Virus record (IMG/VR): IMGVR_UViG_3300045988_017219
Origin: a virus
Direction: 5' to 3' (one strand)
DNA: 42,166 nt
This document shows positions 4,372 to 35,678 of this stretch, one piece after another. How positions within the stretch are numbered: position 1 is the stretch's first letter; every line of letters begins with the position of its first letter. The position numbers and the translations under genes were made by a program. The notes beneath the pieces were generated by a model, which saw only the letters and a list, made by a program, of their open reading frames with translations, was not told the DNA's origin and ran no database searches.

Positions 4372-4447
4372 ATTCCCGTAGTTCAAGTGATGGAACAGCG
4401 GTCTCCAAAACCGCAGGCTGCAGGTTTGAGTCCTGCCGGGAATGCCA
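4372..4447 (+). tRNA. trnW: tRNA-Trp (anticodon CCA), CCA end encoded
   Basis: I hand-folded a full cloverleaf. Acceptor ATTCCCG/CGGGAAT, D-stem GTTC/GAAC, anticodon stem GCGGT/ACCGC with loop CTCCAAA, T-arm GCAGG-TTTGAGT-CCTGC, discriminator G, then CCA. It resembles bacterial tRNA-Trp (A1-U72, GGUCUCCAAAACC). Confidence 0.9.
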
Positions 4448-4581: not shown

Positions 4582-4610
4582 CCGTTCGGATTTCCGGGCG
4601 GTTTTTCTTT
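4582..4610 (+). terminator. Rho-independent terminator immediately upstream of terS
   Basis: An 8-bp stem pairs CCGTTCGG with CCGGGCGG (two G.U pairs) around the loop ATTT, followed by TTTTTCTTTT. Confidence 0.6.
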
Positions 4611-5104
4611 TGCACGAATTTAGAGAGGTGGTGGCGGTGAGCGCGAAGCGGCTGACAGACAGGCAGAAAAAGAAGATCATTGCTGACTATGTGCAGCTGC
4701 AGAGCTACACCAGAGCCGCAAAGCTGAACGACGTGGCAGAAAGCACTGTGCGGAAAATCGTGAAAGATAATCCAAAGTGCGCGGATTTGTGCGCCTTAAA
4801 AAAAGAGCAGAACACGCAGGACATGCTTTCCTACTTAGGCAGCAAGTGCGGGGAAGCACAGAATCTTCTCGGGCTGTACCTTCAGGCGATGGCAGACCGT
4901 AACAAAATCGCGGAAGCAACACTGCCGCAGCTGTCAACGGCGTTCGGCACCATTGTGGACAAGTTTGCCATGCTGGGAGGTCAGAGCGGCGTTGAAGTCC
5001 CGGACGATGGCCTTGCGGAGGCCCTGAATGCCGCCGCAGACCTCAGCCCGCCTGACGATGTGGATCTTCTGCCAAAGGAAGAGGACGACAATGCGGAAAA
5101 GTAA
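4610..5104 (+). CDS. terS: Terminase small subunit (HTH-containing); true start possibly GTG 4637
   Basis: It sits directly upstream of and overlaps terL. The N-terminus is HTH-like (KKKIIADYVQLQSYTRAAKLNDVAESTVRKIV) and the C-terminus is acidic. RBS AGAGAGG lies before the GTG at 4637. Confidence 0.7.
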   Translation: MHEFREVVAVSAKRLTDRQKKKIIADYVQLQSYTRAAKLNDVAESTVRKIVKDNPKCADLCALKKEQNTQDMLSYLGSKCGEAQNLLGLYLQAMADRNKIAEATLPQLSTAFGTIVDKFAMLGGQSGVEVPDDGLAEALNAAADLSPPDDVDLLPKEEDDNAEK

Positions 5105-6338
5105 CGGCTTTCGCTGGAAAGCCCTCAGCCAGCGGCAGAAACAGGTTCTTAGCTGGTGGACACCGCAGAGCGCATACAGCGGATACAACGGCATCATTGC
5201 CGATGGCGCTATCCGCTCGGGCAAGACCTTTGCCATGAGCTTTTCTTTTGTCCAGTGGGCCATGACCTGCTACAGCGGCCAGCAGTTTGCCATGTGCGGC
5301 AAGACCATTGCCAGCTTCCGGCGAAACGTGCTTGGCACGCTCAAGCAGCAGCTTGCAGCCCGTGGCTACAATGTCAAAGAGCATCGGGCAGAAAATTTCA
5401 TGACCGTCAGCAAAGGCGGCAAATCCAACGAGTTTTACTTTTTCGGCGGCAAAGACGAGAGCAGCCAAGACCTGATCCAGGGCATCACGCTGGCTGGGGC
5501 ATTCTTTGACGAGGTGGCGCTGATGCCGCAGAGCTTTGTCAATCAGGCCACTGCCCGCTGCTCCGTCACCGGGTCAAAATTCTGGTTCAACTGCAACCCG
5601 GGCAGCCCACAGCATTGGTTTTATCTTGAGTGGGTGCGGAAATGCCGTTCCCGCAAGATGATGTACCTCCACTTTACGATGGACGACAACTTGTCGCTCT
5701 CCGAGGAAATCAAGGCCAGATACCGCAGCCAGTACAGCGGCGTTTTCTACCAGCGCTACATTCTGGGCCTGTGGACGGTGGCAGAGGGACTTGTATATGA
5801 CATGTTCGACCGCAAAAAGCATGTCGTTGATGAGCTGCCGGAACTGTCCCCCAAAAGCGCCTATGTGGCGTGTGACTTTGGCACCCAGAACGCAACGGTC
5901 TTTTTGCTGCTCCAGAAGCAGGCAGATGCAGACTGCTGGATCGTCACCCGGGAGTACTACTACAGCGGCCGCGAACAGAAGCGGCAAAAGACCGTGGGCG
6001 AGTATGTTGCAGACCTCAAGGCGTGGCTGAACGGTCTCAAGCCGGAGAGGATCATCGTGGACCCCTCTGCCCTGCCCCTGATTACGGAACTGCGCAAGAA
6101 TGGCTTTACCCAGACCCCCGCAAATAACGACGTTCTGAGCGGCATTCTGGACGTGCAGACTATGCTGCAGATCGGGCGGCTGAAGATCTACAAAGACTGC
6201 AAGCACACGCTGGAAGAGTTCGGCGTGTACGCTTGGGACCCGGACAAAGACGACACCGTGCTGAAGGTCAACGACCACTGCATGGACGCTATCCGCTATT
6301 TCGTGCGCACAAAGCGCCTTGTGAAACTGAGGGATTGA
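5091..6338 (+). CDS. terL: Terminase large subunit (PBSX/Terminase_3-like)
   Basis: ATG at 5091 overlaps the terS end. A Walker A motif is present (ADGAIRSGKTFAM). Length and C-terminal nuclease-like region are typical. Confidence 0.9.
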   Translation: MRKSNGFRWKALSQRQKQVLSWWTPQSAYSGYNGIIADGAIRSGKTFAMSFSFVQWAMTCYSGQQFAMCGKTIASFRRNVLGTLKQQLAARGYNVKEHRAENFMTVSKGGKSNEFYFFGGKDESSQDLIQGITLAGAFFDEVALMPQSFVNQATARCSVTGSKFWFNCNPGSPQHWFYLEWVRKCRSRKMMYLHFTMDDNLSLSEEIKARYRSQYSGVFYQRYILGLWTVAEGLVYDMFDRKKHVVDELPELSPKSAYVACDFGTQNATVFLLLQKQADADCWIVTREYYYSGREQKRQKTVGEYVADLKAWLNGLKPERIIVDPSALPLITELRKNGFTQTPANNDVLSGILDVQTMLQIGRLKIYKDCKHTLEEFGVYAWDPDKDDTVLKVNDHCMDAIRYFVRTKRLVKLRD

Positions 6339-6340
6339 TT

Positions 6341-7726
6341 TTGAGCACTGTATACACATTCCAGACCTTTCAGCAGGCGCAAGCCGCCGGGGAACAGCCC
6401 GATTTTGTCCGGCGGTTCGTGCAACAGCACTGCACTTCCGGGCCCTACAAGATGGCTCTGGACGCCGACCTGTACGACGCCCAGAAAAACCCGGGCGCGG
6501 AACGCTTCGCGCAAGCCTACGCCTTTATGCTGAAGCGCCTTTCCAAGAACACCCGGCAGGATGTACCCCGGCCCGATATGGTCAAGAGCAATCTGTTCCG
6601 GCGGCTCAACAAACAGCGTGCTACCTACTCCCTGGGCAACGGCGTCACCTTTGCGGATAAAAACGTGGACAAAGGAAAACTGGGGGCTGAATTTGACGAG
6701 CAGATCCAGAAAGCCGGATACTTTGCCCTAATCCACGGTGAGAGCTTTGGCTTCTGGAACAACGACCATCTGGTGGTGTTCAAGCTGACCGAGTTTGCGC
6801 CCCTGTACGATGAGACCTCCGGCTCCATGCGGGCCGGGGTGCGGTTCTGGCGGCTGAATCCTGACACGGATATGCACTATGTCCTGTACGAAGAGGACGG
6901 TTACACCGAGTACACGGAAAGCAGGATCGGCAGCACTATGCAGGAGACGGCCCCGAAGCAGGCATACAAGAGCGTGACCGTCTCCACCCCCGGCGGCGGG
7001 CTGGAAAGCGTGGAGGGGGAAAACTACAGCACTCTGCCTGTGGTACCGCTGTGGGGATCCGACCTGCATCAAAGCACCCTCGTAGGCCTGAAAGCCTACA
7101 TCGACAACACCGATCTGGTGACGTCCGGCTTCTGCAGCGACTTGCAGGATTGCGCACAGATTTACTGGCTGTGCGAAAACTTCAACGGCATGACCGATGA
7201 TGAACTGCAGGAGTTCCTTGCGAAGCTGAACCTCTACCACATCGCCGGTGCGGACACCAGCGAGGGAGGCAAGATCACCCCATACACCAGCGAAGTGCCG
7301 GTGACTGCCCGGCAGACCCTGCTAGAGCTGCTGCACACCCGGGTCTATGAGGATTTCGGCGGTCTGGACGTGCATTGTGTCAGCGCAAACAGCACCAACG
7401 ACCATCTGGATGCAGCCTATGAACCCATGAACCAGAACGCAGACGACTTCGAGGCTCAGATCAAACCTTTTGTTCGTCAGATTTGTGCGCTGGCTGGCTT
7501 TGGCAGCGCAACGCCGACATTCAACCGGAGCCGGATCGTAAACACCGCAGAGCAGGTCAGCACAGTAATCTCCGAGGCGGCGATCATCGGGCAGGACATG
7601 GCCATTGACCTGCTGCCCAACCTGACCCCGGAGCAGAAAGAAAAGGCCAGGGCGTCCCTGATGGCGGAAAGCGCAGCACGAGAAACCGTGGGCGAGGACG
7701 AGGATGACAACGGTGATGAAACATGA
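6341..7726 (+). CDS. Portal protein (SPP1 gp6-like); start uncertain (TTG 6341 or 6335)
   Basis: It follows terL, has portal-like size, an acidic C-terminus (GEDEDDNGDET), and an ATGA overlap with the MuF-like gene. Confidence 0.85.
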   Translation: MSTVYTFQTFQQAQAAGEQPDFVRRFVQQHCTSGPYKMALDADLYDAQKNPGAERFAQAYAFMLKRLSKNTRQDVPRPDMVKSNLFRRLNKQRATYSLGNGVTFADKNVDKGKLGAEFDEQIQKAGYFALIHGESFGFWNNDHLVVFKLTEFAPLYDETSGSMRAGVRFWRLNPDTDMHYVLYEEDGYTEYTESRIGSTMQETAPKQAYKSVTVSTPGGGLESVEGENYSTLPVVPLWGSDLHQSTLVGLKAYIDNTDLVTSGFCSDLQDCAQIYWLCENFNGMTDDELQEFLAKLNLYHIAGADTSEGGKITPYTSEVPVTARQTLLELLHTRVYEDFGGLDVHCVSANSTNDHLDAAYEPMNQNADDFEAQIKPFVRQICALAGFGSATPTFNRSRIVNTAEQVSTVISEAAIIGQDMAIDLLPNLTPEQKEKARASLMAESAARETVGEDEDDNGDET

Positions 7727-8811
7727 TCTCTGACCGTGACCGCATTTCCACCCGGCAGCTGAACCGCCTGCGCCGCCGCATTTTGCGGGTATACGGCACA
7801 GCCCGCCGGGAAATGACCGAGCAGCTCACCGAGTTTCTTGGGAAGTACCGAGCGTTGGACGAGCGCAAGCGGGCGCAGCTGGATGTGGGCGAGATCACCG
7901 AAGAGGATTACCGCATCTGGCTGCAAAATCAGGTCTTTCAGTCCGATTTGATGCACGCTAAGCTGGACGGCATCACCCAGACCTGTACCACAGCACAGCA
8001 GACGGCCTACAAGCTGGCCCGGGATGAGCAATACAATATCTTTTCCTTTGGCGCAAACTGGGCTTTCTACGAGCTGGAACAGGCCGCAGGCGTGACGTTC
8101 GGGCTGACCCTGTACAATACCGAAGCAGTCAAGCTGCTGCTGAAGGAAAACCCCAAGCTGGTGCCAAACAAGCGCATCAAGAGCGAGAGCAACCGCACCT
8201 ATGACGCCCGGGTGTTCAACCGCTACGTCATGCAAGGCATCGTGCAGGGCAAGAGCGTCCACGACATCGCCGTGCAGGCCGTCAACGGCATGGCTGATAC
8301 AGAGATCCACTGGGCCATGAACAACGCCATCACGGCGCTCACAGGCGCTCAGAACGCCGGGGCATTGCAGCAGATGCGCAACGCCAAGGCTCTGGGCATC
8401 GAGGTCAAAAAGCGGTGGAACTCCACCCACGACTACCGTACCCGTGAGATGCACCGCCTGCTGGATCAGCAGACGGCAGAGCTTGACGAGCCGTTCAAGG
8501 TCATGGGCTACAAGATACAGCGCCCCGGGGACCCCAACGCCGCGCCGGAGATGGTTTACCACTGCCGCTGTGTGCTGTCCTCTGCGCTGGGCAAGTACCC
8601 CAGGCAGAACGCCGCCCGGCGGGAAAATATCGTCACATACGAAGACACGGGTATGGTGGACGCCAAAGGCAAGCCCATAAAAGTGGCAGTAAAGAAAGCC
8701 GTGCCGGTTATGACCTATACCGAGTGGTATAAATCCAAGGGCGGCACGGAAGCCGAACAAATGTGGTGGGCAAAAGAGCGGGAGCGCAAGAAAAAGGAGA
8801 AGGTAAAATGA
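7723..8811 (+). CDS. Head morphogenesis / minor capsid protein (SPP1 gp7, Phage_Mu_F family)
   Basis: Position is after the portal gene. The motif region WNSTHDYRTREMHRLLDQQ...PGDPNAAPEMVYHCRCVL is typical of MuF-like proteins. Confidence 0.85.
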   Translation: MISDRDRISTRQLNRLRRRILRVYGTARREMTEQLTEFLGKYRALDERKRAQLDVGEITEEDYRIWLQNQVFQSDLMHAKLDGITQTCTTAQQTAYKLARDEQYNIFSFGANWAFYELEQAAGVTFGLTLYNTEAVKLLLKENPKLVPNKRIKSESNRTYDARVFNRYVMQGIVQGKSVHDIAVQAVNGMADTEIHWAMNNAITALTGAQNAGALQQMRNAKALGIEVKKRWNSTHDYRTREMHRLLDQQTAELDEPFKVMGYKIQRPGDPNAAPEMVYHCRCVLSSALGKYPRQNAARRENIVTYEDTGMVDAKGKPIKVAVKKAVPVMTYTEWYKSKGGTEAEQMWWAKERERKKKEKVK

Positions 8812-8820
8812 TTGAGTATA

Positions 8821-8848
8821 AAAATAAAGCCCTGCCTCCCGGCAGGGT
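8821..8848 (-). terminator. Terminator for the minus-strand XRE gene
   Basis: GCCCTGCC-TCCC-GGCAGGGT hairpin. The U-tract is present only on the minus strand (the + strand shows AAAATAAA before the stem). Confidence 0.45.
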
Positions 8849-8854
8849 GTAGGG

Positions 8855-9073
8855 TCACTGTTCGGATTTATCCGGCACATATTCCAGTATGTCGCCGGGC
8901 TGGCAATTCAGAACGGTGCAAATTTTTTCAAGAACCCCGATGGGGAGCTGTTTGACCGTTCCAAGGCAAAGAGCCGAGATAGTTGGAGGACGAATCCCGG
9001 TTACTTCGGCAAGTTCCTTTTGCGTCATGTTTGCATCTGCGAGTAACGCTTTCAGATGATAACGAATCGACAT
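8855..9073 (-). CDS. XRE-family HTH transcriptional regulator
   Basis: MSIRYHLKALLADANMTQKELAEVTGIRPPTISALC is a classic Cro/CI-type HTH. RBS AGAGGTG lies before the ATG at 9073. It is divergent from the antirepressor cassette. Confidence 0.8.
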   Translation of the reverse strand: MSIRYHLKALLADANMTQKELAEVTGIRPPTISALCLGTVKQLPIGVLEKICTVLNCQPGDILEYVPDKSEQ

Positions 9074-9169
9074 CTCTTTCACCTCTTTCTTACATCTATA
9101 ATACTACGACTTTCGTTTCAAATCAATACGAAAAAAGAAATTATTTTCAAGAAACTAACGAAAAACGTA

Positions 9170-9198
9170 TTGACTGATTACGCAAATCGTAGTATAAT
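9170..9198 (+). promoter_or_regulatory. Consensus-like sigma-70 promoter TTGACT-17 nt-TATAAT driving the antirepressor cassette
   Basis: Read directly. The short inverted repeat CGTA...TACG brackets the -35 box. Confidence 0.7.
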
Positions 9199-9235
9199 AT
9201 ATCTTGTGAGTGAGAGGGGCGGAAAGGAGACGCCC

Positions 9236-9331
9236 ATGAAGTTCAAGGATTTCAAGAAGCTGAACCCCGAAGAACAGCGCAAGAAGTTTGAACAGTACAA
9301 AAAAGAGTGGTTAGCTGCTCGTAACAACTAA
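9236..9331 (+). CDS. Conserved 31-aa Lys-rich peptide MKFKDFKKLNPEEQRKKFEQYKKEWLAARNN
   Basis: The SD AAGGAG lies in the loop of a GGGCG/CGCCC hairpin just before the ATG. A paralog at 27281..27376 (-) shares 24 of 31 residues, and many of the nucleotide differences are synonymous. Confidence 0.6.
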   Translation: MKFKDFKKLNPEEQRKKFEQYKKEWLAARNN

Positions 9332-9426
9332 CCACTCGAAGATAAGAGAAACCAACCCAACAAAAAAGCTCCTCTTACTCACATTTTATTTTATTTATAA
9401 GAAAAAGTCAAGTAAAATGTGAGGTC

Positions 9427-9717
9427 ATGATGATGCAAACAAGCAAAATCGCAAGCGCAGAGTTTGAGTTGGACATGGTTTCCGGTGAGCTCCAGACGAT
9501 GCACAACCTGTTGAACATCTTTGCAAACTGGTTTGAGGAGACCCACAAGACGGATGATCTGATCCGCCCACGCAACGAGCGTGATGTTTCCCGCCTGTGG
9601 GATGAAGCGCCTATGTATGATTCCATCCTGTGCACGCTGTTCGGCAGCATCTCTGGTCTGGAGAAAGAAGTAAACGCAATCATTGATGAAAGCAATAAGG
9701 AGATTTCTCATGTCTAA
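9427..9717 (+). CDS. Hypothetical 96-aa protein, paralog of 26906..27190
   Basis: RBS GAGG. It shares blocks with the paralog: ELELD.VSGEL.TMH.LLNIFANWFEETHKTD, EAPMY and GLEKEV. Confidence 0.65.
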   Translation: MMMQTSKIASAEFELDMVSGELQTMHNLLNIFANWFEETHKTDDLIRPRNERDVSRLWDEAPMYDSILCTLFGSISGLEKEVNAIIDESNKEISHV

Positions 9718-10465
9718 TATTCAGATTTTCAACTACCAGAACAACGAAGTTCGCACCGTGGAGCTGAACGGCGATCCGTGGTTCGTCCTGAAGGACGTGT
9801 GCAGCACGCTGAACATCAGCAACCAGAGATACGTTCAGGAGCGACTTGACCCTGATGAGGTGGGTAGGTTTGACCTCCCCCACCCCCAGAACCCCGAAAA
9901 GACCATCGAAATGGTTTGCGTCAACGAGTCCGGTCTGTACAACGTCATCCTGCGCAGCGACAAGCCGGAGGCAAAGCCCTTCCGCAAGTGGGTCACGTCC
10001 GAGGTGCTGCCGTCCATCCGCAAGAACGGCGGGTACATCGCCGGGCAGGAGCAGCTCACCCCGGAGGAGCTGATGGCAAAGGCGCTGCTTGTGGCGAACA
10101 AGACCCTTGCAGACCGGGAAGCCCGCATTTGTGAGCTGACCGCACAGAATAGCCAGCTTAACGTGGAGAAGCAGATCATGCAGCCCAAGGCAGAATACTT
10201 CGACGAACTGGTTGACCGCAACCTGTTGACCAATTTCCGGGAGACAGCCAAAGAGCTGGGCATCAAGCCAAAAGCCTTTGTGGCGTGGCTTCTGGACAAG
10301 AAATTCCTTTACTGTGACCAGAAAGGCAAGTTGCTGCCCCGTGAGGACAAGAACAACGGCCTGTTTGAGGTCAAGGAAGCCAAGAACGACAAGACCCAGT
10401 GGAGCGGCGTGCAGACGCTCATCACCCCCAAAGGCCGTGAGACGTTCCGGCTGCTGTACCTGTAA
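9710..10465 (+). CDS. Antirepressor: BRO-N domain + KilA-C/ANT domain
   Basis: The N-terminus IQIFNYQNNEVRTVELNGDPWFVLKDVC...ESGLYNVILRSDKPEAKPFRKWVTSEVLPSIRKNGGY is canonical BRO-N. The C-terminus AEYFDELV...TNFRETAKELGI is ANT-like. Confidence 0.85.
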   Translation: MSNIQIFNYQNNEVRTVELNGDPWFVLKDVCSTLNISNQRYVQERLDPDEVGRFDLPHPQNPEKTIEMVCVNESGLYNVILRSDKPEAKPFRKWVTSEVLPSIRKNGGYIAGQEQLTPEELMAKALLVANKTLADREARICELTAQNSQLNVEKQIMQPKAEYFDELVDRNLLTNFRETAKELGIKPKAFVAWLLDKKFLYCDQKGKLLPREDKNNGLFEVKEAKNDKTQWSGVQTLITPKGRETFRLLYL

Positions 10466-10477
10466 CTGAATCACCGA

Positions 10478-10507
10478 CCCTGCCCCACACCGGGGCGGGG
10501 TTTTGTT
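10478..10507 (+). terminator. Rho-independent terminator ending the antirepressor cassette
   Basis: CCCTGCCCC-ACACC-GGGGCGGGG followed by TTTTGTT. Confidence 0.65.
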
Positions 10508-10523
10508 ATACATGGAGTATAGC

Positions 10524-10976
10524 ATGAATTTCAACTACGACATCAAATTCACCGACAACACCCCGCAGCTGCATGAGGCGCTGGATTCATGGGCGGAGCG
10601 GGTGCTTACCATCTGGGGCATGAAGGTGCAGGACTACGCCCAGCTGCTTGTGCCTACTGGCACGGAGGAAAGCACAGGCATACAGGGCTATGTGGGCGGT
10701 GCGCTCAAGCAGAGCCTGACCTACGCCCTCGACCTCGCAAAAAAGACCGTGACCATCGGCAGCAATCTGTTTTACAGCGTGTATGTGGAGCTGGGCACGG
10801 GCGTCTTTGCCGAGAAGGGCAACGGACGAAAAACGCCGTGGGTCTGGAAGGACTTTAACGGCAAGTGGCACTTTACCCGGGGCATGAAAGCCCGTCCGTT
10901 CCTCCGCCCGGCGGTGGAGGACCACATTGAAGAGCTGCGGCAGATCGCCGTGGAGGAAGGGAACAAGGAGGCGTAA
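10524..10976 (+). CDS. HK97 gp10-family head-tail/tail-completion protein
   Basis: RBS GGAG lies before the ATG at 10524. The segment YSVYVELGTG...ARPFLRPAVE fits the gp10 family pattern. Its position ahead of the scaffold gene is unusual. Confidence 0.65.
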   Translation: MNFNYDIKFTDNTPQLHEALDSWAERVLTIWGMKVQDYAQLLVPTGTEESTGIQGYVGGALKQSLTYALDLAKKTVTIGSNLFYSVYVELGTGVFAEKGNGRKTPWVWKDFNGKWHFTRGMKARPFLRPAVEDHIEELRQIAVEEGNKEA

Positions 10977-11235: not shown

Positions 11236-11312
11236 GCCGCTTTAGCTCAGGCCGGCAGAGCACCGGATTTGTAATCCGGGGGCCGTGGGTTCAAGCCCCA
11301 CAGGCGGCACCA
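11236..11312 (+). tRNA. trnT: tRNA-Thr (anticodon TGT), CCA end encoded
   Basis: I hand-folded a cloverleaf. Acceptor GCCGCTT/AGGCGGC, D-arm GCTC-AGGCCGGCA-GAGC, anticodon stem CCGGA/TCCGG with loop TTTGTAA, T-arm GTGGG-TTCAAGC-CCCAC, discriminator A, then CCA. Confidence 0.9.
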
Positions 11313-15383: not shown

Positions 15384-17969
15384 ATGGCCACTTTGGGGCT
15401 TGATACCTCCGAGTATGAGCAGGGCATCGAGCAGGCCAGAAAAGAGACGCAAAGCGCCGCAAACTCGCTGAACCGTAGCGCAAACACCGCCGGGAGCGGC
15501 GTTTCAGGCATGGCAAACCAGTTTGCAGCAGCCAGCGCAAAAGCGACTGTCCTTGCAAATATGCTTACCTCGCTTGGGACAAAAGCGGTAGGCCTTGCAA
15601 AGGGCTTTGTCGAGATGGGCATTTCTTATAACGCCCAGATAGAAAAGTACACCACCGGCTTTACCAATATGTTGGGCAGCGCAGAAGCTGCACAACAAGC
15701 CATGGCAAAGATTCAGGAGGACGCCGCCCGAACCCCGTTCAACGTCGAAGCTCTGACGCAGGCAAACCAGCTGCTTATCAGCGCGGGTGAAAACGCCGGG
15801 TATTCCGAAAAGGTCATTCTGGCACTTGGCAACGCAGTCAATGCGGCAGGCGGCGGCAATGCGGAACTGTCCCGCATGGCGCAGAACCTGCAGCAGATCG
15901 CCAACGTTGGCAAGGCTGCAAGCATTGACATCAAGCAGTTTGCTTATGCAGGCATCAACATCTATCAGGTTTTGGCCGACTATACCGGTAAATCGGTGCA
16001 GGAAGTCCAGAACATGACCATCAGTTATGACTTGCTGTCTCAGGCTCTTATCGCAGCCAGCGAAGAGGGCGGGCGCTACTACGGTGCTATGGAGACACAG
16101 AGCCAGACCATGAATGGGCGCATGTCTACCCTGCAGGACAATGTGAAGCAGCTGGCGGGGCTTTTGACCGGCAACCTTACAAGCGCACTCGGCGGCGTTA
16201 TTACCAAACTGAATGAAATGGTTTTGGCTGCCCAAGACGCATACAAGCTTGACGGATGGAGCGGGCTTATCGGAGAAATAACGGGACTTTCCAACGTTAT
16301 TGATAAGGCAAAATCCTCTGCTGTTGGATTGAAAGCTGTTTTTGACGCTTTAAAAAGTGGAGAAATCGGCATATTTCACGGTGACTGGGATGCTGTTTAT
16401 CAAAAAGCATTCAATTCAGACCAAGAGAGCAAGAAAATCCAAAAAGAAAGCAGAAAAAACTGGGACAAAAACCATAATGGAATGGTCTGGGACGAAAATG
16501 ACGGCTGGGTTCCAGCTAAAACCAGCGGAGAAACCGGCAGCTCCATCGTAACAAGCCCTACTGGCACAACCAAGAAAAAATCCACAGGTAAAAAATCCAC
16601 AACCGAAACGGTCATTGCGTCGGTGTCCAACACCGTGACCACCAGCGCCATGAACGCGCTGGGCGCCGTGACTACAAGCGTTGAGACCTTGCAGGAGAAG
16701 GTAAAGGACGCAGCGGGCAACATCAAAGACCGCGTTACAGAGACCACCACCGAGACCGGCAAAGAGATGGTCAACGGCGTTGCTACTACCTATACGCTTG
16801 TGACCAAGAAAGTCACGGACGCGAACGGCAAGATAAGCACCACGACCAAGAAGGTCTACGCCGATATGTCCAAGACCCTGACCGGCACCCTGACCAAGGT
16901 TGCAGAAACGACCTTTGACGGCATCACGACCAAAATCCAGGAAGCTACAGAAAAATACGCCGACGGCAGCGAGCATATTAAGAAGACTGTCACAGAGACC
17001 GGCCAGCGCATCGGAAAGAACGGCGCGGAGACCTACGAGAAGATCATCACCTACATCGACGGAATCGAAGACAAGGTGAACGAGACCTCTACTCTTATCG
17101 ACAAGAGCGTAAAGGGCACCCAGAGCCGCATTGACCAGCAGCTGAGTGAGGCTTCCGGCCAGCTGGATAAGGGCATTTTCGGGCTGGTAAAAAGCGCCTT
17201 TAGTGACGCCAAAAATGGCGACTGGGGCGGTCTCGCTCTGGATTTTGTCAATCTAATCTGGGGCGAAGTGTCGCAGGATCAGCGTGACGTGATCTCTAAG
17301 TGGTTTGCGGACGCGCTGACCGCAGTCAATGAGGGCTACTTCAGCGGCGGCATTGGCAAGGCGCTGGGGTCTATCCAGAGCATTTTCACAAACGGCATTA
17401 CTGCCGGAGTGGATGGTGCCACTACGTCTGTAAAGGCGTTCTCTGAGATTGTGCAGGGCCTTGCGAGCTCTGGCGGCGTTGGCGGCGCACTTGGCAGCAT
17501 TGTGCAGGGTTTTTCTGGTATGGCTGGCGGCATCACGTCCGCGCTTGGCACTGTGGTGTCGTTCATCTCGGCGAACCCGGTTTTAGGTATCATTCTCGGC
17601 GTTGGAGCTGTGGGTGCTGTAGCTGGCGGCATCGGGCTTTCGCTGTGGGCCAAAAACAAAAAGAGCAAAGACCCGGTCAATAATTACAAGAGCCCGTTTG
17701 ACGATGTAGGCGTGTACGACAGCCTGAGCGAGTTTTCTACGCGGTCTGCGATGCAGTACCGCGTGATTGGACAGAGCAGCCACGCAGACAAGCAGACCAG
17801 CATTCTGGAGCGCATCGAGGAGCTTCTGGACGAGCATCTGCCTGCCATTGGCACCGGTCAGGTGGTCATGGATTCTGGCGAGCTGGTGGGCGTCATTTCG
17901 CCCAGAATGGCACAAAATGTTGACGCGCGCATCGGTGTGACCGTGACGAGGAAAGCGAGGGGTGTGTAA
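15384..17969 (+). CDS. Tape measure protein
   Basis: About 860 aa. It has N-terminal TMP-like text, a Gly-rich hydrophobic segment near the C-terminus, and the expected position. Confidence 0.9.
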   Translation: MATLGLDTSEYEQGIEQARKETQSAANSLNRSANTAGSGVSGMANQFAAASAKATVLANMLTSLGTKAVGLAKGFVEMGISYNAQIEKYTTGFTNMLGSAEAAQQAMAKIQEDAARTPFNVEALTQANQLLISAGENAGYSEKVILALGNAVNAAGGGNAELSRMAQNLQQIANVGKAASIDIKQFAYAGINIYQVLADYTGKSVQEVQNMTISYDLLSQALIAASEEGGRYYGAMETQSQTMNGRMSTLQDNVKQLAGLLTGNLTSALGGVITKLNEMVLAAQDAYKLDGWSGLIGEITGLSNVIDKAKSSAVGLKAVFDALKSGEIGIFHGDWDAVYQKAFNSDQESKKIQKESRKNWDKNHNGMVWDENDGWVPAKTSGETGSSIVTSPTGTTKKKSTGKKSTTETVIASVSNTVTTSAMNALGAVTTSVETLQEKVKDAAGNIKDRVTETTTETGKEMVNGVATTYTLVTKKVTDANGKISTTTKKVYADMSKTLTGTLTKVAETTFDGITTKIQEATEKYADGSEHIKKTVTETGQRIGKNGAETYEKIITYIDGIEDKVNETSTLIDKSVKGTQSRIDQQLSEASGQLDKGIFGLVKSAFSDAKNGDWGGLALDFVNLIWGEVSQDQRDVISKWFADALTAVNEGYFSGGIGKALGSIQSIFTNGITAGVDGATTSVKAFSEIVQGLASSGGVGGALGSIVQGFSGMAGGITSALGTVVSFISANPVLGIILGVGAVGAVAGGIGLSLWAKNKKSKDPVNNYKSPFDDVGVYDSLSEFSTRSAMQYRVIGQSSHADKQTSILERIEELLDEHLPAIGTGQVVMDSGELVGVISPRMAQNVDARIGVTVTRKARGV

Positions 17970-25901: not shown

Positions 25902-26100
25902 AAGGAAACCCGACCGGCCTCTCAACGATGCGCATTAGGTCGGGTCATCCGAGAGCTAACTCCGTGCTCAACGGAGAATTAAAAAAGCAGTCGCCAGATT
26001 CGGCGCTGAACAGTCTCCCGCACGCCTACTTGCAGTGCGTACCATGCGGGAGACGCATAAAGCCCCCGGTGTTCCGTTTGGAGCATCGGGGGGTCTTTTT
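25902..26100 (+). ncRNA. Candidate small RNA of about 200 nt (orphan promoter-to-terminator unit)
   Basis: No RBS-preceded ORF. Helices pair at 25909-25915/25938-25944, 25960-25965/25971-25976 and 26014-26022/26045-26053. It ends in a strong + strand terminator. Confidence 0.35.
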
Positions 26101-26104
26101 GTTT
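26063..26104 (+). terminator. Rho-independent terminator (U-tract on the + strand)
   Basis: CCCCCGGTG pairs with CATCGGGGG, followed by TCTTTTTGTTT. It abuts the stop codon of the convergent minus-strand gene. Confidence 0.65.
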
Positions 26105-26909
26105 ATGCGGACTGCTCAGCAGGGGCGGAGAGCACTTTGCGTTCCTTTGCTTTCTGCTCTGCCTGTTCCTTCACGGTCAAATAGCCATGGTCGTGCATCT
26201 GCTTGTAGATAAATGCCTGTCCGGTGCGGTTCCAGCGGGTGTTCTCTTTGGTCTCGCCGTTGCCTACCTCAACAGGAATACTCACTGTATAACCCTTGTC
26301 GATGTACTTGCGCTTGGGGATCCACTGCTTGTTGACCTTCTTCTGAATGCCCCATTCTTCCAGCAGTTTGTTGAGCTTGTTGGCGGTCATGCCAAAGTTG
26401 AGCGCAATCTGCGTCACGGTGAGCGTTTCATCACTCAAAAGCATATTGTGGGCGTACTCGGCGGCGGGCTTGAGCTTGGCATTTTCCTTTTCAAGCTGCT
26501 TGGAGCGCTCCTGTTCCCTTGCAATGATGCCCTGCGCCATCACCAACGCTTTAGAGAGCGCCAGCTCTGGCGGTTCCGGTTCAGGTGTGGTCAGCTTCTT
26601 CTCCATCTCGTTAAAGGCTTGGATGTACTTCAGCTTCCACTCCATAGCTTTTGCACTCTTGTTGAAGCCCATAACCAACAGGGTAAAGCCATCCCGGTTC
26701 ATCAGGTACATGGGGTAAGTTTGTCCATTCTGCGGGTGGACATACTCTGTCTTGAAGAACATGGGGGTGTCCCCATTTTTGGGGAGACCCTTCATAATGT
26801 CTTCGATGTCACGCATCACATGGTCGTGACGTTTCTCAAACTTTTCCGCAATGTCCAGACTGGACACCACAGCCTGCCCGTTCTGAGCGGAAAGAATAAT
26901 GTCACTCAT
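26103..26909 (-). CDS. Antirepressor-type regulator: Rha (Phage_pRha) N-domain + KilA-C/ANT C-domain
   Basis: VVSSLDIAEKFEKRHDHVMRDIEDI...YLMNRDGFTLLVMGF...WKLKYIQAFNEME is the Rha signature. The C-terminus AEYAHNML...TVTQIALNFGM is ANT-like. Confidence 0.85.
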   Translation of the reverse strand: MSDIILSAQNGQAVVSSLDIAEKFEKRHDHVMRDIEDIMKGLPKNGDTPMFFKTEYVHPQNGQTYPMYLMNRDGFTLLVMGFNKSAKAMEWKLKYIQAFNEMEKKLTTPEPEPPELALSKALVMAQGIIAREQERSKQLEKENAKLKPAAEYAHNMLLSDETLTVTQIALNFGMTANKLNKLLEEWGIQKKVNKQWIPKRKYIDKGYTVSIPVEVGNGETKENTRWNRTGQAFIYKQMHDHGYLTVKEQAEQKAKERKVLSAPAEQSA

Positions 26910-27190
26910 GCTGCACTCTCCTTGTTAATCTCCGCTTCAATGACTTCATCGACTTCCTTTTCCAAACCCGTGAGGGATGCAAACAAGGCCGTAATCAAAG
27001 AGTTGTACATCGGGGCTTCGTTCCAAATCTGGCTCACAAGCTCGCTGGTGCGCTCCCGCTTGATCATATCGGTCTTGTGCGTTTCCTCAAACCAGTTGGC
27101 AAAGATGTTCAGTAGGTCGTGCATTGTGCGGAGTTCACCAGAAACAGCATCCAGTTCAAGCTCCACTTTCGTGATTTTGGGTGTTTCCAT
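26906..27190 (-). CDS. Hypothetical 94-aa protein, paralog of 9427..9717
   Basis: Conserved blocks are shared with the other copy. ATGA-type overlap with the downstream Rha/ANT gene. Confidence 0.65.
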   Translation of the reverse strand: METPKITKVELELDAVSGELRTMHDLLNIFANWFEETHKTDMIKRERTSELVSQIWNEAPMYNSLITALFASLTGLEKEVDEVIEAEINKESAA

Positions 27191-27280
27191 GATAAAATAC
27201 CTTTACTTTCTCCGTGAAATAATATAAAATAAAGGTACAAGAGGGGCTTTTGCTAGGGTTGCTTCTTGTGCTTGGAGTGA

Positions 27281-27376
27281 TTAGCTGTTACGAGCGGCTA
27301 ACCACTCTTTTTTATATTGCTCAAACAATTTGCGCTGCTGTTCACGGTTCAGCCGTTGAAACTCTTTGAACTTCAT
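27281..27376 (-). CDS. Conserved 31-aa peptide MKFKEFQRLNREQQRKLFEQYKKEWLAARNS (paralog of 9236..9331)
   Basis: I translated it from the reverse strand. It has the same GGGCG-loop(AAGGAGG)-CGCCC leader hairpin directly before the ATG. Confidence 0.6.
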   Translation of the reverse strand: MKFKEFQRLNREQQRKLFEQYKKEWLAARNS

Positions 27377-27413
27377 GGGCGTCCTCCTTTCCGCCCCTCT
27401 TGACCATGAATAT

Positions 27414-27442
27414 ATTATAGCACGGTAAACCATGCCGTTCCA
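27414..27442 (-). promoter_or_regulatory. Extended -10 promoter (TGcTATAAT on the minus strand) for the inverted antirepressor cassette
   Basis: The reverse complement of 27414-27422 reads TGCTATAAT. The -35 box is weak (TGGAAC). Confidence 0.5.
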
Positions 27443-27548
27443 TTGACAAAATGGACAATGTTTACTGTGCTGTTTTATGCACTTTTGGCATTGTAAACCG
27501 TGCTATCATTTGATATACTATGGGTGGTGGAATAGGAGGTGTTATTTA

Positions 27549-27818
27549 ATGGGTATCTCGGAAAAAAAGAAAAAGAGTAATGCCAAATGGGACAAAGAGA
27601 ACATGACGGTGCTGGCCTGCAAGGTGAGGAAGGAAGTTGCTGACAAGTTCAAAGCAGCTTGTGCGGCAGAAGATACGACCTCGAACGCCGTTTTACAGCA
27701 GGCGGTACGGGACTATATTGACGCCCACCCCGTGCCGGAAGAGCCAGAAGCACCGCCGGGGGATGCAGAGACGGAAGTTCGGCGGGCTGCATTGCTAGAA
27801 CAAATCAAGAATCTGTAA
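27549..27818 (+). CDS. Ribbon-helix-helix (Arc/MetJ/CopG-like) DNA-binding protein candidate
   Basis: RBS TAGGAGGTG. KWDKENMTVLACKVRKEVADKFKAACAAEDTTSNAVLQQAVRDYI fits a beta-strand plus two-helix RHH layout. It is divergent from the antirepressor operon. Confidence 0.55.
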   Translation: MGISEKKKKSNAKWDKENMTVLACKVRKEVADKFKAACAAEDTTSNAVLQQAVRDYIDAHPVPEEPEAPPGDAETEVRRAALLEQIKNL

Positions 27819-31432: not shown

Positions 31433-32566
31433 TCAGTACTTCATCTTCTGCATTTCCCGCAACAAATATGTCGGATCGTTGTGGGACACGTACTTATTGG
31501 CCGTGGTGGAGAAATTTTTGTGCCCGAGGATTGCCTGTACCGCGGTCTTTTCCAGGCCGCACTCCACCATCTTACTACTGGCCGTGTGGCGCAGCGTGTG
31601 TGGATGCACGCCCTCTATATGGCATTCCTGCATCAACGCCCGGAACTTTGTAGCCACGTTGCGCTTATCCAGCTTTGTGCCGGCCTTGGATGGAATCAGC
31701 CATTCGCACCCGCTGTCAAGCATCCAAAAGGAAATGATCTTGTAAATGGGCTCAAGGATGGGGATGATGCGGTTCTTGCCCGCTTCTGTCTTTTCACCGC
31801 CCTGCATGTACCGCTCTTTCAGATGCACATCCTCGCAGCGCATGGAAAGCAGCTCGTCGATGCGCATGCCGGTATAAAGCAGTACCATTGCGATTTGCGC
31901 CGTCTGCCCAAACCTCGGGTCGTCTTGTCGGCTGCTGATCTGCTCGATCTCTTGGGCGGTCAGGGTGCGCTCTGCTTTTCCTGTAGCCGCCGGGAGCTGC
32001 AGCAGCATGGCATAATTTTTGTTTATGATGTCCTGCGCCATTGCCCACTCGCAGATCTGGCTAAAAAGCGTGCGCTGTTTTTCACAGGAGCTTCGGGAGA
32101 GCCCTTTTTCCACCATTGCGTCAATGACCTGTTGATAATCTGCCGCTTTTAAGTCCCGCAATTGTCGGTCGTATAGCGGCGCAGCCTTTGCATAGGCCAG
32201 CTCGTACCCCTTTTGCATGTCCGTGCTGAGCTTTTGAAACTTTGGCTGAGCTTTCCATTGGGTATAGGCATCTGCAAAGGTGCATTTCAGAAGCGCAGCG
32301 GGGGTGTTCTGGGCGTTGTAAGCGTCCAGCGCTTGTACTGCTTCGCCTGCCGTTTCAAACGTTCCCAGAACATCCCTGCTGGCTGTGAGTGCAACATACG
32401 GTCTTGCCCGCGTCCCGCTCAGTTTATACACGCTGCCGCTGCCCTTTGGGCGGCGGCGCTTTTTTCTTTGCTGCGGGGCGGCTTCCGGCTGTTTCTTTCC
32501 GCACCACGGACAAAAAGAAGCACCATCCGGGATCTCTTTCCGGCAGCATGGTCTCACGCATTTCAT
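31433..32566 (-). CDS. int: Tyrosine recombinase / phage integrase with an N-terminal zinc ribbon
   Basis: The C-terminal catalytic text is HPHTLRHTASSKMVECG...ILGHKNFSTTANKYVSH. The N-terminus is CCRKEIPDGASFCPWCG. Confidence 0.9.
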   Translation of the reverse strand: MKCVRPCCRKEIPDGASFCPWCGKKQPEAAPQQRKKRRRPKGSGSVYKLSGTRARPYVALTASRDVLGTFETAGEAVQALDAYNAQNTPAALLKCTFADAYTQWKAQPKFQKLSTDMQKGYELAYAKAAPLYDRQLRDLKAADYQQVIDAMVEKGLSRSSCEKQRTLFSQICEWAMAQDIINKNYAMLLQLPAATGKAERTLTAQEIEQISSRQDDPRFGQTAQIAMVLLYTGMRIDELLSMRCEDVHLKERYMQGGEKTEAGKNRIIPILEPIYKIISFWMLDSGCEWLIPSKAGTKLDKRNVATKFRALMQECHIEGVHPHTLRHTASSKMVECGLEKTAVQAILGHKNFSTTANKYVSHNDPTYLLREMQKMKY

Positions 32567-32569
32567 GGC

Positions 32570-33157
32570 TTACTCCTTTTTCTGCCCGATATATCCGAAT
32601 GCACCATTTTCAGCAGCGGCCCTTCCGGCCCTGTAGTTGATCTTCAGGTCGTCAATGGGAGGATGCGGAGCGTCCGGGCATGGGTCAAGGCCAGCAATCT
32701 GCGCATAGGTATACTGGTCTATGATGGTCCCGCACACGCTGACCCGGTTGTTGAGTGGGCAGTGCAGGTTTGCTGCCATCTCGGAGATCACCGCAGGCGG
32801 ACTGCTGCCGTGTCGGCCCTTCAGAATGAAAAGCAGCAGTCGCTTCGTGATGGGCGGCAGAGCCCTCATCAGCAGATGCAGCTCCCGATCTACAGAATCT
32901 TCCAGCCTTTCGATGTCGGAAACCGCATACAGATCTGGGTGCATCATCTCCATAAACACGGTGATGGGGGACACCCCACATGCTGTGCACCAATCCATGA
33001 CCTCGTCACTGTCCGGGCTGGTGCAGCCTTTTTCCCAGCTCTGTACCGTCCTCTCACCCTTCTCGATGAGCCTTGCGATCTCCACTTGGCTCAGGCCGGC
33101 AGATACCCTGGCCTTTGCAAGCGCTTTTCCAATCTGGGTTGCCGTAAAATAACTCAT
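32570..33157 (-). CDS. XRE-family HTH protein with an unknown C-terminal domain, co-oriented with int
   Basis: ATG at 33157. The HTH is GKALAKARVSAGLSQVEIARLIEKGERTVQSWEKG. There is a 3-nt gap to the int start. Confidence 0.7.
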   Translation of the reverse strand: MSYFTATQIGKALAKARVSAGLSQVEIARLIEKGERTVQSWEKGCTSPDSDEVMDWCTACGVSPITVFMEMMHPDLYAVSDIERLEDSVDRELHLLMRALPPITKRLLLFILKGRHGSSPPAVISEMAANLHCPLNNRVSVCGTIIDQYTYAQIAGLDPCPDAPHPPIDDLKINYRAGRAAAENGAFGYIGQKKE

Positions 33158-33197
33158 ACTTTCGCCCCCATAAAACCAACGTGTTTTTAACAGAAAA

Positions 33198-33220
33198 TGG
33201 CGCAGAAAAAATCTGCGCCA
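33198..33220. promoter_or_regulatory. Perfect 9-bp inverted repeat TGGCGCAGA-AAAAA-TCTGCGCCA (operator or hairpin)
   Basis: Read directly in the divergent intergenic region. Confidence 0.4.
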
Positions 33221-33260
33221 TTCGACAAAAAATATCCGTATTTTGTTTTCCAACGGCGCA

Positions 33261-33269
33261 TGGTAGAAT
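33261..33269 (+). promoter_or_regulatory. Extended -10 element TGgTAGAAT
   Basis: Read directly upstream of the small + strand ORFs. Confidence 0.4.
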
Positions 33270-33315
33270 TTGGAACATAAGACATAAATGTGCACAAAAG
33301 AAAGGGGAAAACAAA

Positions 33316-34809: not shown

Positions 34810-35112
34810 TACATAATCAGAAATCAGATTTACCAGCACCGGAATCAGGAGCAAAGTGACGATGCCGCCTGCTATTTTCATCAGCCAGGAAAACTGGTTT
34901 GCGTTGCGTTCTCGCAAAAATTGCTTTCCGGCTTCGGTGATTTGCAACCCGGACTGCATGAACCCCGTTGCAGACGATTCTGCAAAGCCAAGTTCTTCAA
35001 GCGCCGTAGCGTCTTGAAACAGTTCTTTTGTCCGTTCAACGCCACCGGGATATTCCCGATCGAGGGCTTTCAGCAGTTTGAGCTCTTTTCTATTAAGATG
35101 TATTATACTCAC
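34789..35112 (-). CDS. Small protein with a soluble N-domain and a C-terminal TM anchor, co-transcribed with the CI-like repressor
   Basis: Its start overlaps the CI stop. The C-terminal hydrophobic segment is IAGGIVTLLLIPVLVNLI. Confidence 0.6.
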   Translation of the reverse strand: MSIIHLNRKELKLLKALDREYPGGVERTKELFQDATALEELGFAESSATGFMQSGLQITEAGKQFLRERNANQFSWLMKIAGGIVTLLLIPVLVNLISDYVLPVLFK

Positions 35113-35536: not shown

Positions 35537-35678
35537 AGAGAACGTAAGGAGCAAACAAAACCAAAAGCCCCTGACAACATTATATCGGGTGGACGCTAGA
35601 TTTTATTCACTTTGTACCTCGCAACTACATAGTAGCATATTTTCTAGTGATTTTCAAGCCCGGAAAGGAGAATTGCTA

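Follow-up and report, generated by a model that had tools for sequence, protein, structure and literature searches.

The window analysed here, a 42,166-nucleotide stretch of DNA catalogued as IMG/VR virus record IMGVR_UViG_3300045988_017219, raises the question of how a phage that carries two similar operons for antirepressor-type (Ant) proteins controls their expression. The 42-kb window (55% G+C) looks like a nearly complete temperate phage genome, and its nearest deposited relatives by DNA similarity are the Faecalibacterium phages Aster and FP_Brigit, which suggests a Faecalibacterium-type host. DNA similarity was used for the host assignment because the protein of ~95 amino acids (aa) encoded in both operons has no relative among 185,579 reference genomes. 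The answer we favor, and hold to be rather likely, is that each of the two operons, termed here cassette 1 and cassette 2, is a self-contained antirepressor control module of a temperate Faecalibacterium-type phage, and would follow the logic of the immI region of phage P22 with unrelated parts. The cassettes look like control regions of the P22 immI type because a convergent promoter, a countertranscript and divergent repressors with operators, all of them predicted, occur together; these features were absent from the initial annotation of the locus.

The initial annotation described two inverted paralogous cassettes, cassette 1 on the + strand (9236-10465) and cassette 2 on the - strand (27376-26103), and this arrangement was borne out, gene order and positions included. 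Each starts with a 31-aa open reading frame, ORF1 (9236-9331 on the + strand, MKFKDFKKLNPEEQRKKFEQYKKEWLAARNN, in cassette 1; 27281-27376 on the - strand, MKFKEFQRLNREQQRKLFEQYKKEWLAARNS, in cassette 2, the latter being the commonest public allele with 18 instances), followed by gene 2, which encodes the ~95-aa protein, and by a gene for a Bro-N or Rha protein with an ANT domain. Gene 2 of cassette 1 (9427/9433-9717, + strand) encodes 94-96 aa, the likely start being the ATG at 9427, 9430 or 9433, and its paralogue in cassette 2 (26906-27190, - strand) encodes 94 aa. The N-domains of the Ant proteins differ, as had been noticed: the cassette 1 gene (9710-10465, + strand) combines Bro-N (PF02498, E 2.5e-24, 86.1 bits) with ANT, or KilAC (PF03374, E 5.8e-22, 78.5 bits), and matches PHROG 130 'anti-repressor Ant' (E 1.2e-73), and the cassette 2 gene (26103-26909, - strand) combines Rha (PF09669 Phage_pRha, E 1.3e-30, 106.3 bits) with ANT (PF03374, E 1.3e-22, 80.6 bits). 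Both proteins clear the Pfam gathering cut-offs for these domains, which are 25-30 bits, and they are only 25% identical overall; 'antirepressor' is used for both as a putative, domain-level label. Gene 2 and ant overlap by 8 nucleotides (nt) (ATGTCTAA) in cassette 1, by 4 nt (ATGA) in cassette 2 and by 1-8 nt in homologous loci, and ant carries its own Shine-Dalgarno (SD)-type sequence, AAGGAG; the overlap is compatible with translational coupling. Behind ant, cassette 1 has a predicted intrinsic terminator (10476-10502, + strand; an 11-bp GC-rich stem, then a T-run) and cassette 2 a terminator hairpin (26063-26092; 13-bp stem) whose T-run is stronger on the + than on the - strand. Identity between the cassettes is 28% upstream of the -10 box, 82% from the -10 box to the ATG, 80% in ORF1, 56% in the spacer between ORF1 and gene 2, and 64% in gene 2, so that the leader and ORF1 are the best conserved part of a mosaic.

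Consensus scans placed a promoter of the sigma-70/SigA type in the spacer of both cassettes, reading back toward ORF1. In cassette 1 this antisense promoter, TTGACT-17-TAAAAT (9383-9411, - strand; 10 of 12 consensus positions), is convergent with the operon promoter and would produce a 78-nt cis-antisense RNA (9299-9376, - strand) consisting of a 5' hairpin, a terminator hairpin (9337-9305) and a U6 run (9304-9299), which overlaps ORF1 codons 22-31 and the spacer. Cassette 2 has the same geometry, with the promoter TTTACT-17-TAAAAT (27202-27230, + strand; 9 of 12) and a predicted 77-nt RNA (27237-27313, + strand) with a 5' hairpin, a terminator hairpin at ~27274-27307 and U6. These lengths assume a start 7 nt past the -10 box, and cassette 1 has a second, overlapping promoter-like match 5 nt upstream. 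Across the family the predicted transcripts are 75-78 nt long, and in their fold a short linker joins a 5' stem-loop (9-14 bp) to a terminator hairpin of 14-15 bp with U6. The terminator scan found the cassette 1 terminator (15 pairs and T6, ~45 nt past the promoter) on the antisense strand only, and the cassette 2 terminator as a partial match, its hairpin and U6 being like those of cassette 1. The hairpin at the ORF1 stop codon was also considered as a sense-strand terminator and was ruled out, as the sense strand lacks a downstream U-run. Neither RNA would reach the gene 2 SD, and the SD of ant is over 300 nt away from both. An Rfam search of positions 9100-9500 at E<=10 gave a best bit score of 21.2, as compared with a gathering score of 100 for that family.

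Public sequences were searched for the same arrangement with two kinds of pattern. Pattern scans of IMG/VR anchored on ORF1 and on the leader gave 49 loci, and a second pattern, which specified only the opposite-strand element to avoid circularity, gave 109 instances. From the latter we excluded two chance matches (L101, L113), one instance at a low-coverage contig end where the start of the ORF was lost (L080), and one cut by the end of the locus. The search for the peptide beyond this phage that the initial annotation had proposed, next to ant, Bro or Rha genes, thus found the same leader and ORF1 in ~100 public phage and metagenome loci, although some of these lack Ant.

The predicted antisense promoter is conserved in these sequences. 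Its -35 box is TTGACT in 11 unique variants, TTTACT in 7 and TTGACA in 5, and it lies exactly 17 nt from TAAAAT in all 23. The sequence between the hexamers varies, and the adjacent transcribed loop has insertions and deletions. The RNA folds better as the antisense strand. The minimum free energy (MFE) of the cassette 1 RNA is -32.2 kcal/mol (z -6.26 relative to dinucleotide shuffles) versus -17.3 for its sense complement, and the corresponding values in cassette 2 are -29.9 and -19.6; in 26 unique variants the mean is -31.9 kcal/mol for antisense versus -19.3 for sense, the antisense strand being the more stable in 26 of 26. In an alignment of 18 sequences with a 21-pair RNAalifold structure, 98.1% of the cells can pair on the antisense strand (76 of them as G-U) versus 78.7% on the sense strand, and sliding the partners by 1-3 columns as a shifted-register control left 39-59%. 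At three positions of helix 1, G-C alternates with G-U, which gives C-A mismatches on the sense strand, and this helix therefore appears to be essentially antisense-specific. The per-pair counts for helix 1 are conservative because MAFFT mis-registers it in the cassette 2-type sequences, where single-sequence folds give 9-14 bp. Compensatory double changes were found in three pairs. Two of these lie in the terminator and alter peptide residues 27-31 from AARN(N/S) to ATRHS, ATRHN or VTRHN, which argues that the RNA stem takes precedence over the C-terminus of the peptide. The reverse complement of ORF1 codons 22-31 (AAA AAA GAG TGG TTA GC...) makes up the hairpin and U-run, which explains why the nucleotide sequence of ORF1 hardly varies there.

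The genes around this block are exchangeable. In front of the 95-aa family the first gene of the operon may be the 31-aa ORF, a 56-aa ribbon-helix-helix (RHH) gene (L007-L012; a true RHH, PF01402 RHH_1, E 2.7e-8) or a 65-aa XRE gene (L013-L015), so that the position of the 31-aa ORF is taken in the sister cassettes by an Arc-like or Cro-like autoregulator. The spacer of L007-L012 is unrelated in sequence and contains an antisense promoter, TTGTAA-17-TATAAT with an extended TG (10 of 12), and a ~79-nt two-hairpin RNA whose U-run lies over the RHH stop codon. We regard it as a probable independent replicate of the antisense arrangement. The complete sister cassette (about 2640-3000 in L007) consists of the Arc-like RHH gene, the predicted antisense RNA, a 94-aa gene and a Bro-N (+ORF6C) gene. 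In the L007 type, the gene 2 SD, AAGAGG, pairs with CCTCTT in a hairpin that is followed by T6 and is attenuator-like.

Among the loci with ORF1, the divergent gene and its operators vary (five XRE types and several RHH types), and the downstream genes include two 95-aa subtypes, an unrelated 53-aa or 77-aa gene, Bro-N or Rha Ant proteins, and a 168-aa Cys-rich protein, while the leader, ORF1 and the RNA block are constant. Because the neighbors change and the block stays, it can be regarded as a portable regulatory cassette. In four loci (L026, L027, L029, L040) the block precedes, and would drive, the 53-aa gene and the 168-aa Cys-rich protein (CRCDCG...C..C) instead of Ant; their divergent gene is a 61-aa RHH-like gene, and no Pfam match was found for the Cys-rich protein. 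The alternative 53-aa and 77-aa second genes were tried as distant homologues of the 95-aa protein and rejected (hhalign probability <1%). The only cultured carrier of the module is phage Aster (PP479941.1, L060), which is heat-inducible. The 356-nt gap between its orf24 and orf25 (16269-16623 of the record) is unannotated and contains the leader hairpin, an intact ORF1 (MKFKDFQKLSREQQREKFEQYKKEWLATRHN), and the antisense promoter and terminator. Another phage, on IMG/VR contig IMGVR_UViG_3300045988_051960 (L022 and L034; identical to ENA ORKV01000569, L066/L117), has two module copies in opposite orientation, whose predicted RNAs differ in the loop of the first hairpin, as they do in the window; such cassette pairs may be common. 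One instance (L096) is located on a 1.83-Mb contig, SCPN01000064.1, presumably as an integrated prophage in a bacterial assembly.

Upstream of ORF1 each cassette has a divergent gene and a promoter region with operator-like repeats. In cassette 1 the divergent gene (8855-9073, - strand) encodes a 72-aa XRE-type repressor (PF13443 HTH_26, E 4.3e-23; PHROG 'transcriptional repressor'), with ATG at 9073 and the SD AGAGG 8 nt before it; the list of open reading frames has a GTG start at 9082. The intergenic region (9094-9202) holds back-to-back divergent promoters with mirror-image operator-like repeats (TACGACTTTCGT, AACGAAAAACGTA, TACGCAAATCGTA). It forms an inverted repeat with 37-nt arms that are 76% complementary, and each arm contains a -10-like box and a palindrome of the TACG-N5-CGTA type. 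The predicted sense promoter of the ant operon, TTGACT-17-TATAAT (9170-9198, + strand), matches the consensus at 11 of 12 positions. In cassette 2 the divergent gene (27549-27818, + strand; ATG at 27549, preceded by AGGAGG) encodes an 89-aa ribbon-helix-helix-like protein, which has only weak RHH_10, ParG and Arc-like matches (E 0.006-0.1) and has homologues at the equivalent site in other loci. The divergent promoter region here (27412-27509) has repeated operator-like half-sites of the GCACGGTAAAC type, inverted repeats with 23-nt arms (83%) and 19-nt arms (79%), and an extended -10 sense promoter, TGcTATAAT (27422-27414, - strand). Judged from their position over both promoters, the repeats are putative operators of the divergent repressors.

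The motif GAGGGGCG-GAAAGGAG(G)A-CGCCC-ATG, which the initial annotation had read in both leaders, is present in both. It corresponds to a 5'-untranslated hairpin with the stem GGGCG/CGCCC, located at 9217-9235 (+ strand) in cassette 1, where the SD GGAG (9226-9229) occupies a 9-nt loop and the stem abuts the ATG, and at 27377-27396 (- strand) in cassette 2, where GGAGG is in the loop. The MFE is -11.3 kcal/mol (z -2.58 versus shuffles) for the 46-nt leader of cassette 1 and -10.1 (z -1.51) for the cassette 2 hairpin. The claim that the SD is presented in a hairpin loop therefore holds for the structure, a 5-bp stem with a 9-10 nt loop and AUG directly after it, but the statistics are weak (z -2.6 and -1.5) and there is almost no covariation. 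The hairpin is conserved among the loci, with one stem-shifting variant (GGAGCGG...CCGCCC) and one C-to-U change that preserves a G-U pair.

ORF1 itself was examined for selection on the peptide. The two peptides in the window share 24 of 31 residues, as had been counted, and their codon differences divide into 7 synonymous and 7 non-synonymous. The frame is intact, with 31 codons, in all 105 evaluable instances, which comprise 30 alleles and 25 peptide variants, and it has a strong SD. The pairwise Nei-Gojobori ratio of non-synonymous to synonymous substitutions (dN/dS) is 0.11-0.13 in frame versus 1.25-1.9 in the two other frames, which contain stops in every allele of the 16-allele set; these ratios are rough, the pairwise values being non-independent and the synonymous sites few, and the contrast between frames is nonetheless clear. 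Variable sites at codon positions 1, 2 and 3 number 11, 12 and 21, respectively, and positions M1 K2 F3 F6 E19 Y21 K22 K23 L26 R29 are invariant. Given the intact frame in 105 of 105 instances and the low in-frame as against the high off-frame dN/dS, it is highly probable that ORF1 is translated and that selection acts on its peptide. The initial annotation had argued for selection on the peptide and had proposed that lack of conservation, or dN/dS near 1, would speak against it; the small ORF is kept in homologous cassettes and its ratio is far from 1. The argument needs one correction, since the nucleotide conservation at the 3' end of ORF1 is partly due to the terminator hairpin of the antisense strand.

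A selected peptide could itself be a regulator. The 31-aa product may act in trans, either as a mini-antirepressor like AimX or SinI or as a pairing helper like Rom; the large Bro-N/Rha-ANT protein would then not be the sole effector, and such a role could coexist with the antisense RNA. Purifying selection is not confined to the overlap with the RNA but acts over the full peptide, codons 2-21 included, which speaks for this explanation; the composition is basic, the residue pattern could be read as an amphipathic helix, and experiments in Bacillus arbitrium phages have demonstrated helical antirepressors of as few as 29 aa (bioRxiv 10.1101/2025.11.23.689978). However, the peptide has no similarity to any known protein in Pfam, PHROGs, the PDB or by tblastn on phage records, the PDB sequences having been searched with the single sequence and with a profile. 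Moreover, the same peptide occurs with XRE or RHH neighbors and with 95-, 53- or 77-aa second genes, and does not co-vary with the type of Ant. Any partner must therefore be constant, such as a host factor, an RNA or the ribosome, and we consider it unlikely that the peptide is a trans-acting regulator of this kind.

A different explanation dispenses with the antisense RNA and draws on the sense strand of the spacer. In cassette 1 a sense hairpin formed by CTCACATTTTA...TAAAATGTGAG (9378-9424, + strand) contains the gene 2 SD (GAGG) in its 3' arm and brackets the antisense promoter; the region 9360-9440 has an MFE of -19.8 (z -3.85). In cassette 2 the arms are different (TACCTTTA/TAAAGGTA) and z is -0.42. 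Every cassette type has a sense hairpin whose 3' arm includes the gene 2 SD, and A-to-G changes in this arm preserve U-G pairs in the variants. The conserved GTCAAG lies in the loop of the sense hairpin, and the sense fold offers no reason for its conservation. The consensus scan reported no sense-strand internal promoter for gene 2 in the cassette 1 spacer, and around the spacer between ORF1 and gene 2 neither mutually exclusive folds, or an alternative anti-terminator fold, nor an Rfam leader match was found. By eye, the first bases of the operon's 5'-untranslated region, UGUGAG (9205-9212), repeat the hairpin 3' arm AUGUGAGG (9415-9421) and could compete for the 5' arm CUCACA; this was seen in most related leaders and in the cassette 1 type only.

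On this explanation, ORF1 translation or stalling together with the sense hairpins would form a translational or attenuation device acting in cis to set Ant output, and the promoter on the other strand would be a by-product of an AT-rich loop. The ribosome would remodel the mRNA ahead of it by melting the hairpin at the ORF1 stop codon, and the gene 2 SD would thereby become free or sequestered. The explanation accounts for the selection of ORF1 as a peptide and its strong SD, for a 10-13 bp hairpin whose 3' arm includes the ORF1 stop codon, and for a gene 2 SD that occupies a hairpin arm in each of the three cassette types, frequently ahead of U4-U5, and is kept paired through the A-to-G changes. 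It is at odds with the differences between the strands. The first helix of the spacer forms on the antisense strand only, the sense strand having two to three C-A mismatches in 9 bp; GTCAAG, which has no role in the sense fold, belongs to a -35 box exactly 17 nt from an invariant -10; the hairpin with U6 is a terminator on the antisense strand only; and the unrelated L007-type spacer carries an equivalent antisense promoter and terminator. In addition, 45-95 nt separate the end of ORF1 from the gene 2 hairpin, a distance at which a ribosome terminating on ORF1 could not open that hairpin directly, and the cassette 2 sense hairpin is no better than shuffled sequences. A device of this kind in place of the antisense RNA thus seems quite improbable.

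Gene 2 was analysed as the second component of the operon. The two proteins are identical at 54 of 94 positions (57%), and the blocks LLNIFANWFEETHKTD, EAPMY and GLEKEV, listed in the initial annotation as shared, are present in both; the stretch of about 50 nt estimated by eye at 85% identity corresponds to 42 of 48 matching nucleotides under LLNIFANWFEETHKTD, about 87%. The gene is conserved, with a dN of 0.39 and a dS of ~1.9. Its product is a small acidic protein, predicted to be all-helical, with three helices in an AlphaFold model of medium confidence (pLDDT 66). That neither the peptide nor the 95-aa protein belongs to a described family was upheld by Pfam, PHROGs, PDB sequences and a fold search of the PDB, all of which were empty; the gene 2 model had no Foldseek match in the PDB, which says little, since the model is only of medium confidence. 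The family is small: clustering at 90% identity divides it into 28 clusters, and the 1.84 billion clusters formed at 50% identity include only 21 representatives of it. Its members all come from metagenomes and are always located upstream of a Bro-N or Rha protein.

We propose that the antisense control module works as follows. In the lysogen the divergent repressor would keep the promoter of the operon shut. Once the operon is transcribed, its mRNA would be paired with the countertranscript across the end of ORF1 and the spacer, and this pairing would limit expression of gene 2 and ant. Repression could follow from duplex-dependent cleavage or decay, from the antisense RNA favoring the hairpin that sequesters the SD and may act as a weak terminator or attenuator, or from interference between two strong promoters facing each other ~215 bp apart; all three routes are compatible with the anatomy. 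Translation of ORF1 would run across the 3' third of the antisense target, and ORF1 would probably modulate antisense pairing, or act as a small basic helical cofactor, or both. Its conserved sequence implies more than the passage of ribosomes; it may have a role as a nascent peptide, as an RNA-binding helper or in trans. Gene 2 would supply a small acidic helical partner, kept at a fixed ratio to Ant by translational coupling, as is icd with ant in P1.

Several points weigh against the antisense control module. Both the antisense promoter and its terminator were predicted by consensus. A strand as rich in G+U as that of the RNA inherently favors folding, which the shuffle z-score controls for only partly. 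The 18-26 unique variants fall into ~3-4 lineages, and double changes occur in only 3 of 21 pairs; because the variants are closely related, the covariation counts represent few independent events. The cassette 2 RNA is less exceptional (z -2.2 for a 75-nt version) and has one C-A mismatch in a stem. The predicted RNA covers neither the gene 2 nor the ant ribosome-binding site, unlike sar, and the mechanism of repression is therefore not obvious. The loci with an XRE first gene (L013-L015) have no spacer at all, so that the antisense unit is not obligatory for the pair of 95-aa and ant genes. Finally, the label 'antirepressor' depends on domains, and the target repressor is putative.

The antisense control module can be extended, in a version that we put forward only tentatively and consider doubtful as a whole, to a switch with three layers. 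The translated 31-aa micro-protein would be physically interlocked with the cis-antisense RNA, whose terminator coincides with the codons for the peptide C-terminus, the peptide being a sensor of ribosome arrest or occupancy that gates antisense pairing, or a Rom- or AimX-like factor acting in trans; the 95-aa protein would be an obligatory partner or inhibitor of the Bro-N/Rha-KilAC protein; and the loop of the first hairpin would determine cassette specificity. If this were true, the variability of that loop would allow a single phage to carry two or more antirepressor switches that operate orthogonally.

The cassettes lie apart from the immunity genes of the phage. Cassette 1 is a moron-like insert in the head gene block (7723-10976), flanked on the left by a Mu-F-like minor head gene (7723-8811) and on the right by a gp10-like connector gene (10524-10976), both assigned by Pfam/PHROG. 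Terminase and portal genes were assigned to 4610-7726 by synteny with related loci, not from the ORFs of the window, and the gene content also includes a tail fibre and RecT-like and SSB-like replication genes. In related phages (L001-L006) the same cassette is located at the cassette 1 position with additional small genes around it, and elsewhere in relatives the module is found beside the integrase (phage Aster) or before the terminase (L007). The window encodes a tyrosine integrase (31433-32566, - strand) and a divergent CI/Cro-like pair (35109-35477 on the - strand and 35508-35894 on the + strand); the candidates for the main repressor are 35109-35477 and 32570-33295. In the early operon, just 3' of the CI/Cro-like pair, there is a third antirepressor-type gene with a Rha-like N-domain (36500-37252, + strand; PHROG 373 'anti-repressor', E 8.5e-60), which brings the phage to three Ant-like proteins. 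Only two tRNA genes reach Rfam gathering thresholds across the whole window, a phage-borne tRNA-Trp(CCA) (4372-4447, + strand) and a tRNA-Thr(TGT) (11236-11312, + strand) in the head gene block just past the gp10-like gene. Upstream of the packaging genes, a 400-aa protein of the moron or auxiliary type (1197-2399, + strand) matches the PHROG 'phosphoadenosine phosphosulfate reductase' (E 1.1e-27).

The idea that the cassettes are not lysis-lysogeny switches but tightly silenced toxic or exclusion modules (a Kil-type growth inhibitor, abortive infection or superinfection exclusion), with a harmful KilAC protein, a 95-aa neutralizer or chaperone, and a repressor and antisense RNA that keep them off in the lysogen, is very unlikely in our view: it would fit the moron-like location of the cassettes away from the immunity region, the separate promoter and terminator of each, the third Rha-type Ant already present beside the CI/Cro-like pair, the multi-layer repression and coupled small acidic partner that are typical of toxic genes, the 53-aa and 168-aa Cys-rich genes driven by the same leader module instead of Ant in some phages, and the growth inhibition by overexpressed staphylococcal phi11 Gp07 (Bro-N+KilA-C) (PMC5944126), but P22 ant, a true antirepressor, is likewise located in a late-operon moron under similar control (PMC2629481), and the sequence has no sign of toxicity.

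Control of these operons matters for the biology of the host. Faecalibacterium is among the most abundant human gut bacteria, and the module bears on the induction decision of its phages; Faecalibacterium prophages are active and are linked to disease state (PMC11792537). The module is portable: it recurs in ~100 loci of public gut phages and metagenomes, and in the cultured phage Aster it is not annotated. It combines three unannotated or orphan components, namely a predicted small RNA, a 31-aa gene missed by current annotation, and a 95-aa family tied to Bro-N/Rha-KilAC proteins, and the function of such 'antirepressors' has rarely been tested. To our knowledge, antisense control of antirepressor synthesis is known so far from P22 and P1-type enterobacterial phages. 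If the antisense RNA proves true, this kind of control would have arisen independently in Gram-positive-type gut phages as well, and the overlap of ORF1 with the RNA would be a compact case of joint constraint on the evolution of a coding sequence and an RNA terminator.

Four known systems invite comparison. AimX and SinI are helical antirepressors of 29-80 aa, often unannotated and with overlapping antisense units, in lysis-lysogeny modules (bioRxiv 10.1101/2025.11.23.689978). The 31-aa peptide has no homology to AimX, and whereas AimX variants co-vary with the repressor AimC, the peptide does not co-vary with the neighboring repressor, which argues against a simple AimX-like role. In plasmids of the pT181, pIP501 and pAMbeta1 type, a countertranscript controls replication by antisense-induced attenuation. 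The cassettes resemble them in having a short two-hairpin antisense RNA, predicted here, from a convergent promoter in an operon leader, in the sense hairpin 3' of the target, often with a short U-run, just before the regulated gene, and in a small repressor acting on the sense promoter as well, as in the logic of CopR. They differ in that the regulated unit is a phage antirepressor operon and not a rep gene, and in that the hairpin is AT-rich with a 24-nt loop and only U4-U5, and would hence be a poor terminator.

In the immI region of P1 and P7 an RNA repressor controls the synthesis of a KilAC-family antirepressor (PMC8546580). There, as here, a small ORF (icd in P1, gene 2 in the cassettes) is located directly upstream of ant and overlaps it. 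Heinrich et al. are said to have found in 1994 that translation of P1 icd is required for ant expression, and the P1 c4 RNA, as reportedly described by Citron and Schuster in 1992, arises by processing of the same transcript, and the sites on which it acts lie upstream. In contrast to c4, the RNA predicted here is a convergent countertranscript on the opposite strand with its own promoter, and the 31-aa first ORF has no known equivalent in P1 immI.

P22 immI consists of mnt, arc, the antisense sar RNA and ant, and has been described as an 'ant moron' in the late operon (PMC2629481; PMC13397905). The first gene in the window encodes a 31-aa peptide without an RHH signal in Pfam, PHROGs or the PDB, and not Arc, and an extra ~95-aa gene is inserted between it and ant. 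The P22 sar antisense RNA covers the ant ribosome-binding site, whereas the predicted RNA lies over the end of the first gene and the spacer and resembles sar neither in sequence nor at the Rfam level. In the Ant proteins KilAC is joined to Bro-N or Rha in place of the P22 Ant type, the P22_AR_N match of only E 0.068 being below threshold, and the host is a Gram-positive-type gut anaerobe. The architecture is nevertheless that of P22 immI in four respects: an independently regulated block within late (morphogenesis) genes; a small repressor gene divergent from the ant operon promoter, like mnt, with operator-like repeats over the promoters to which its product is predicted to bind; a small first gene ahead of ant; and a short hairpin-rich antisense RNA, predicted here, that starts at an internal promoter convergent with the operon promoter and ends at an intrinsic terminator. 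The sister cassettes of L007-L012 come closest to the P22 order of arc, sar and ant, with an RHH gene, a predicted countertranscript and the ant operon in succession.

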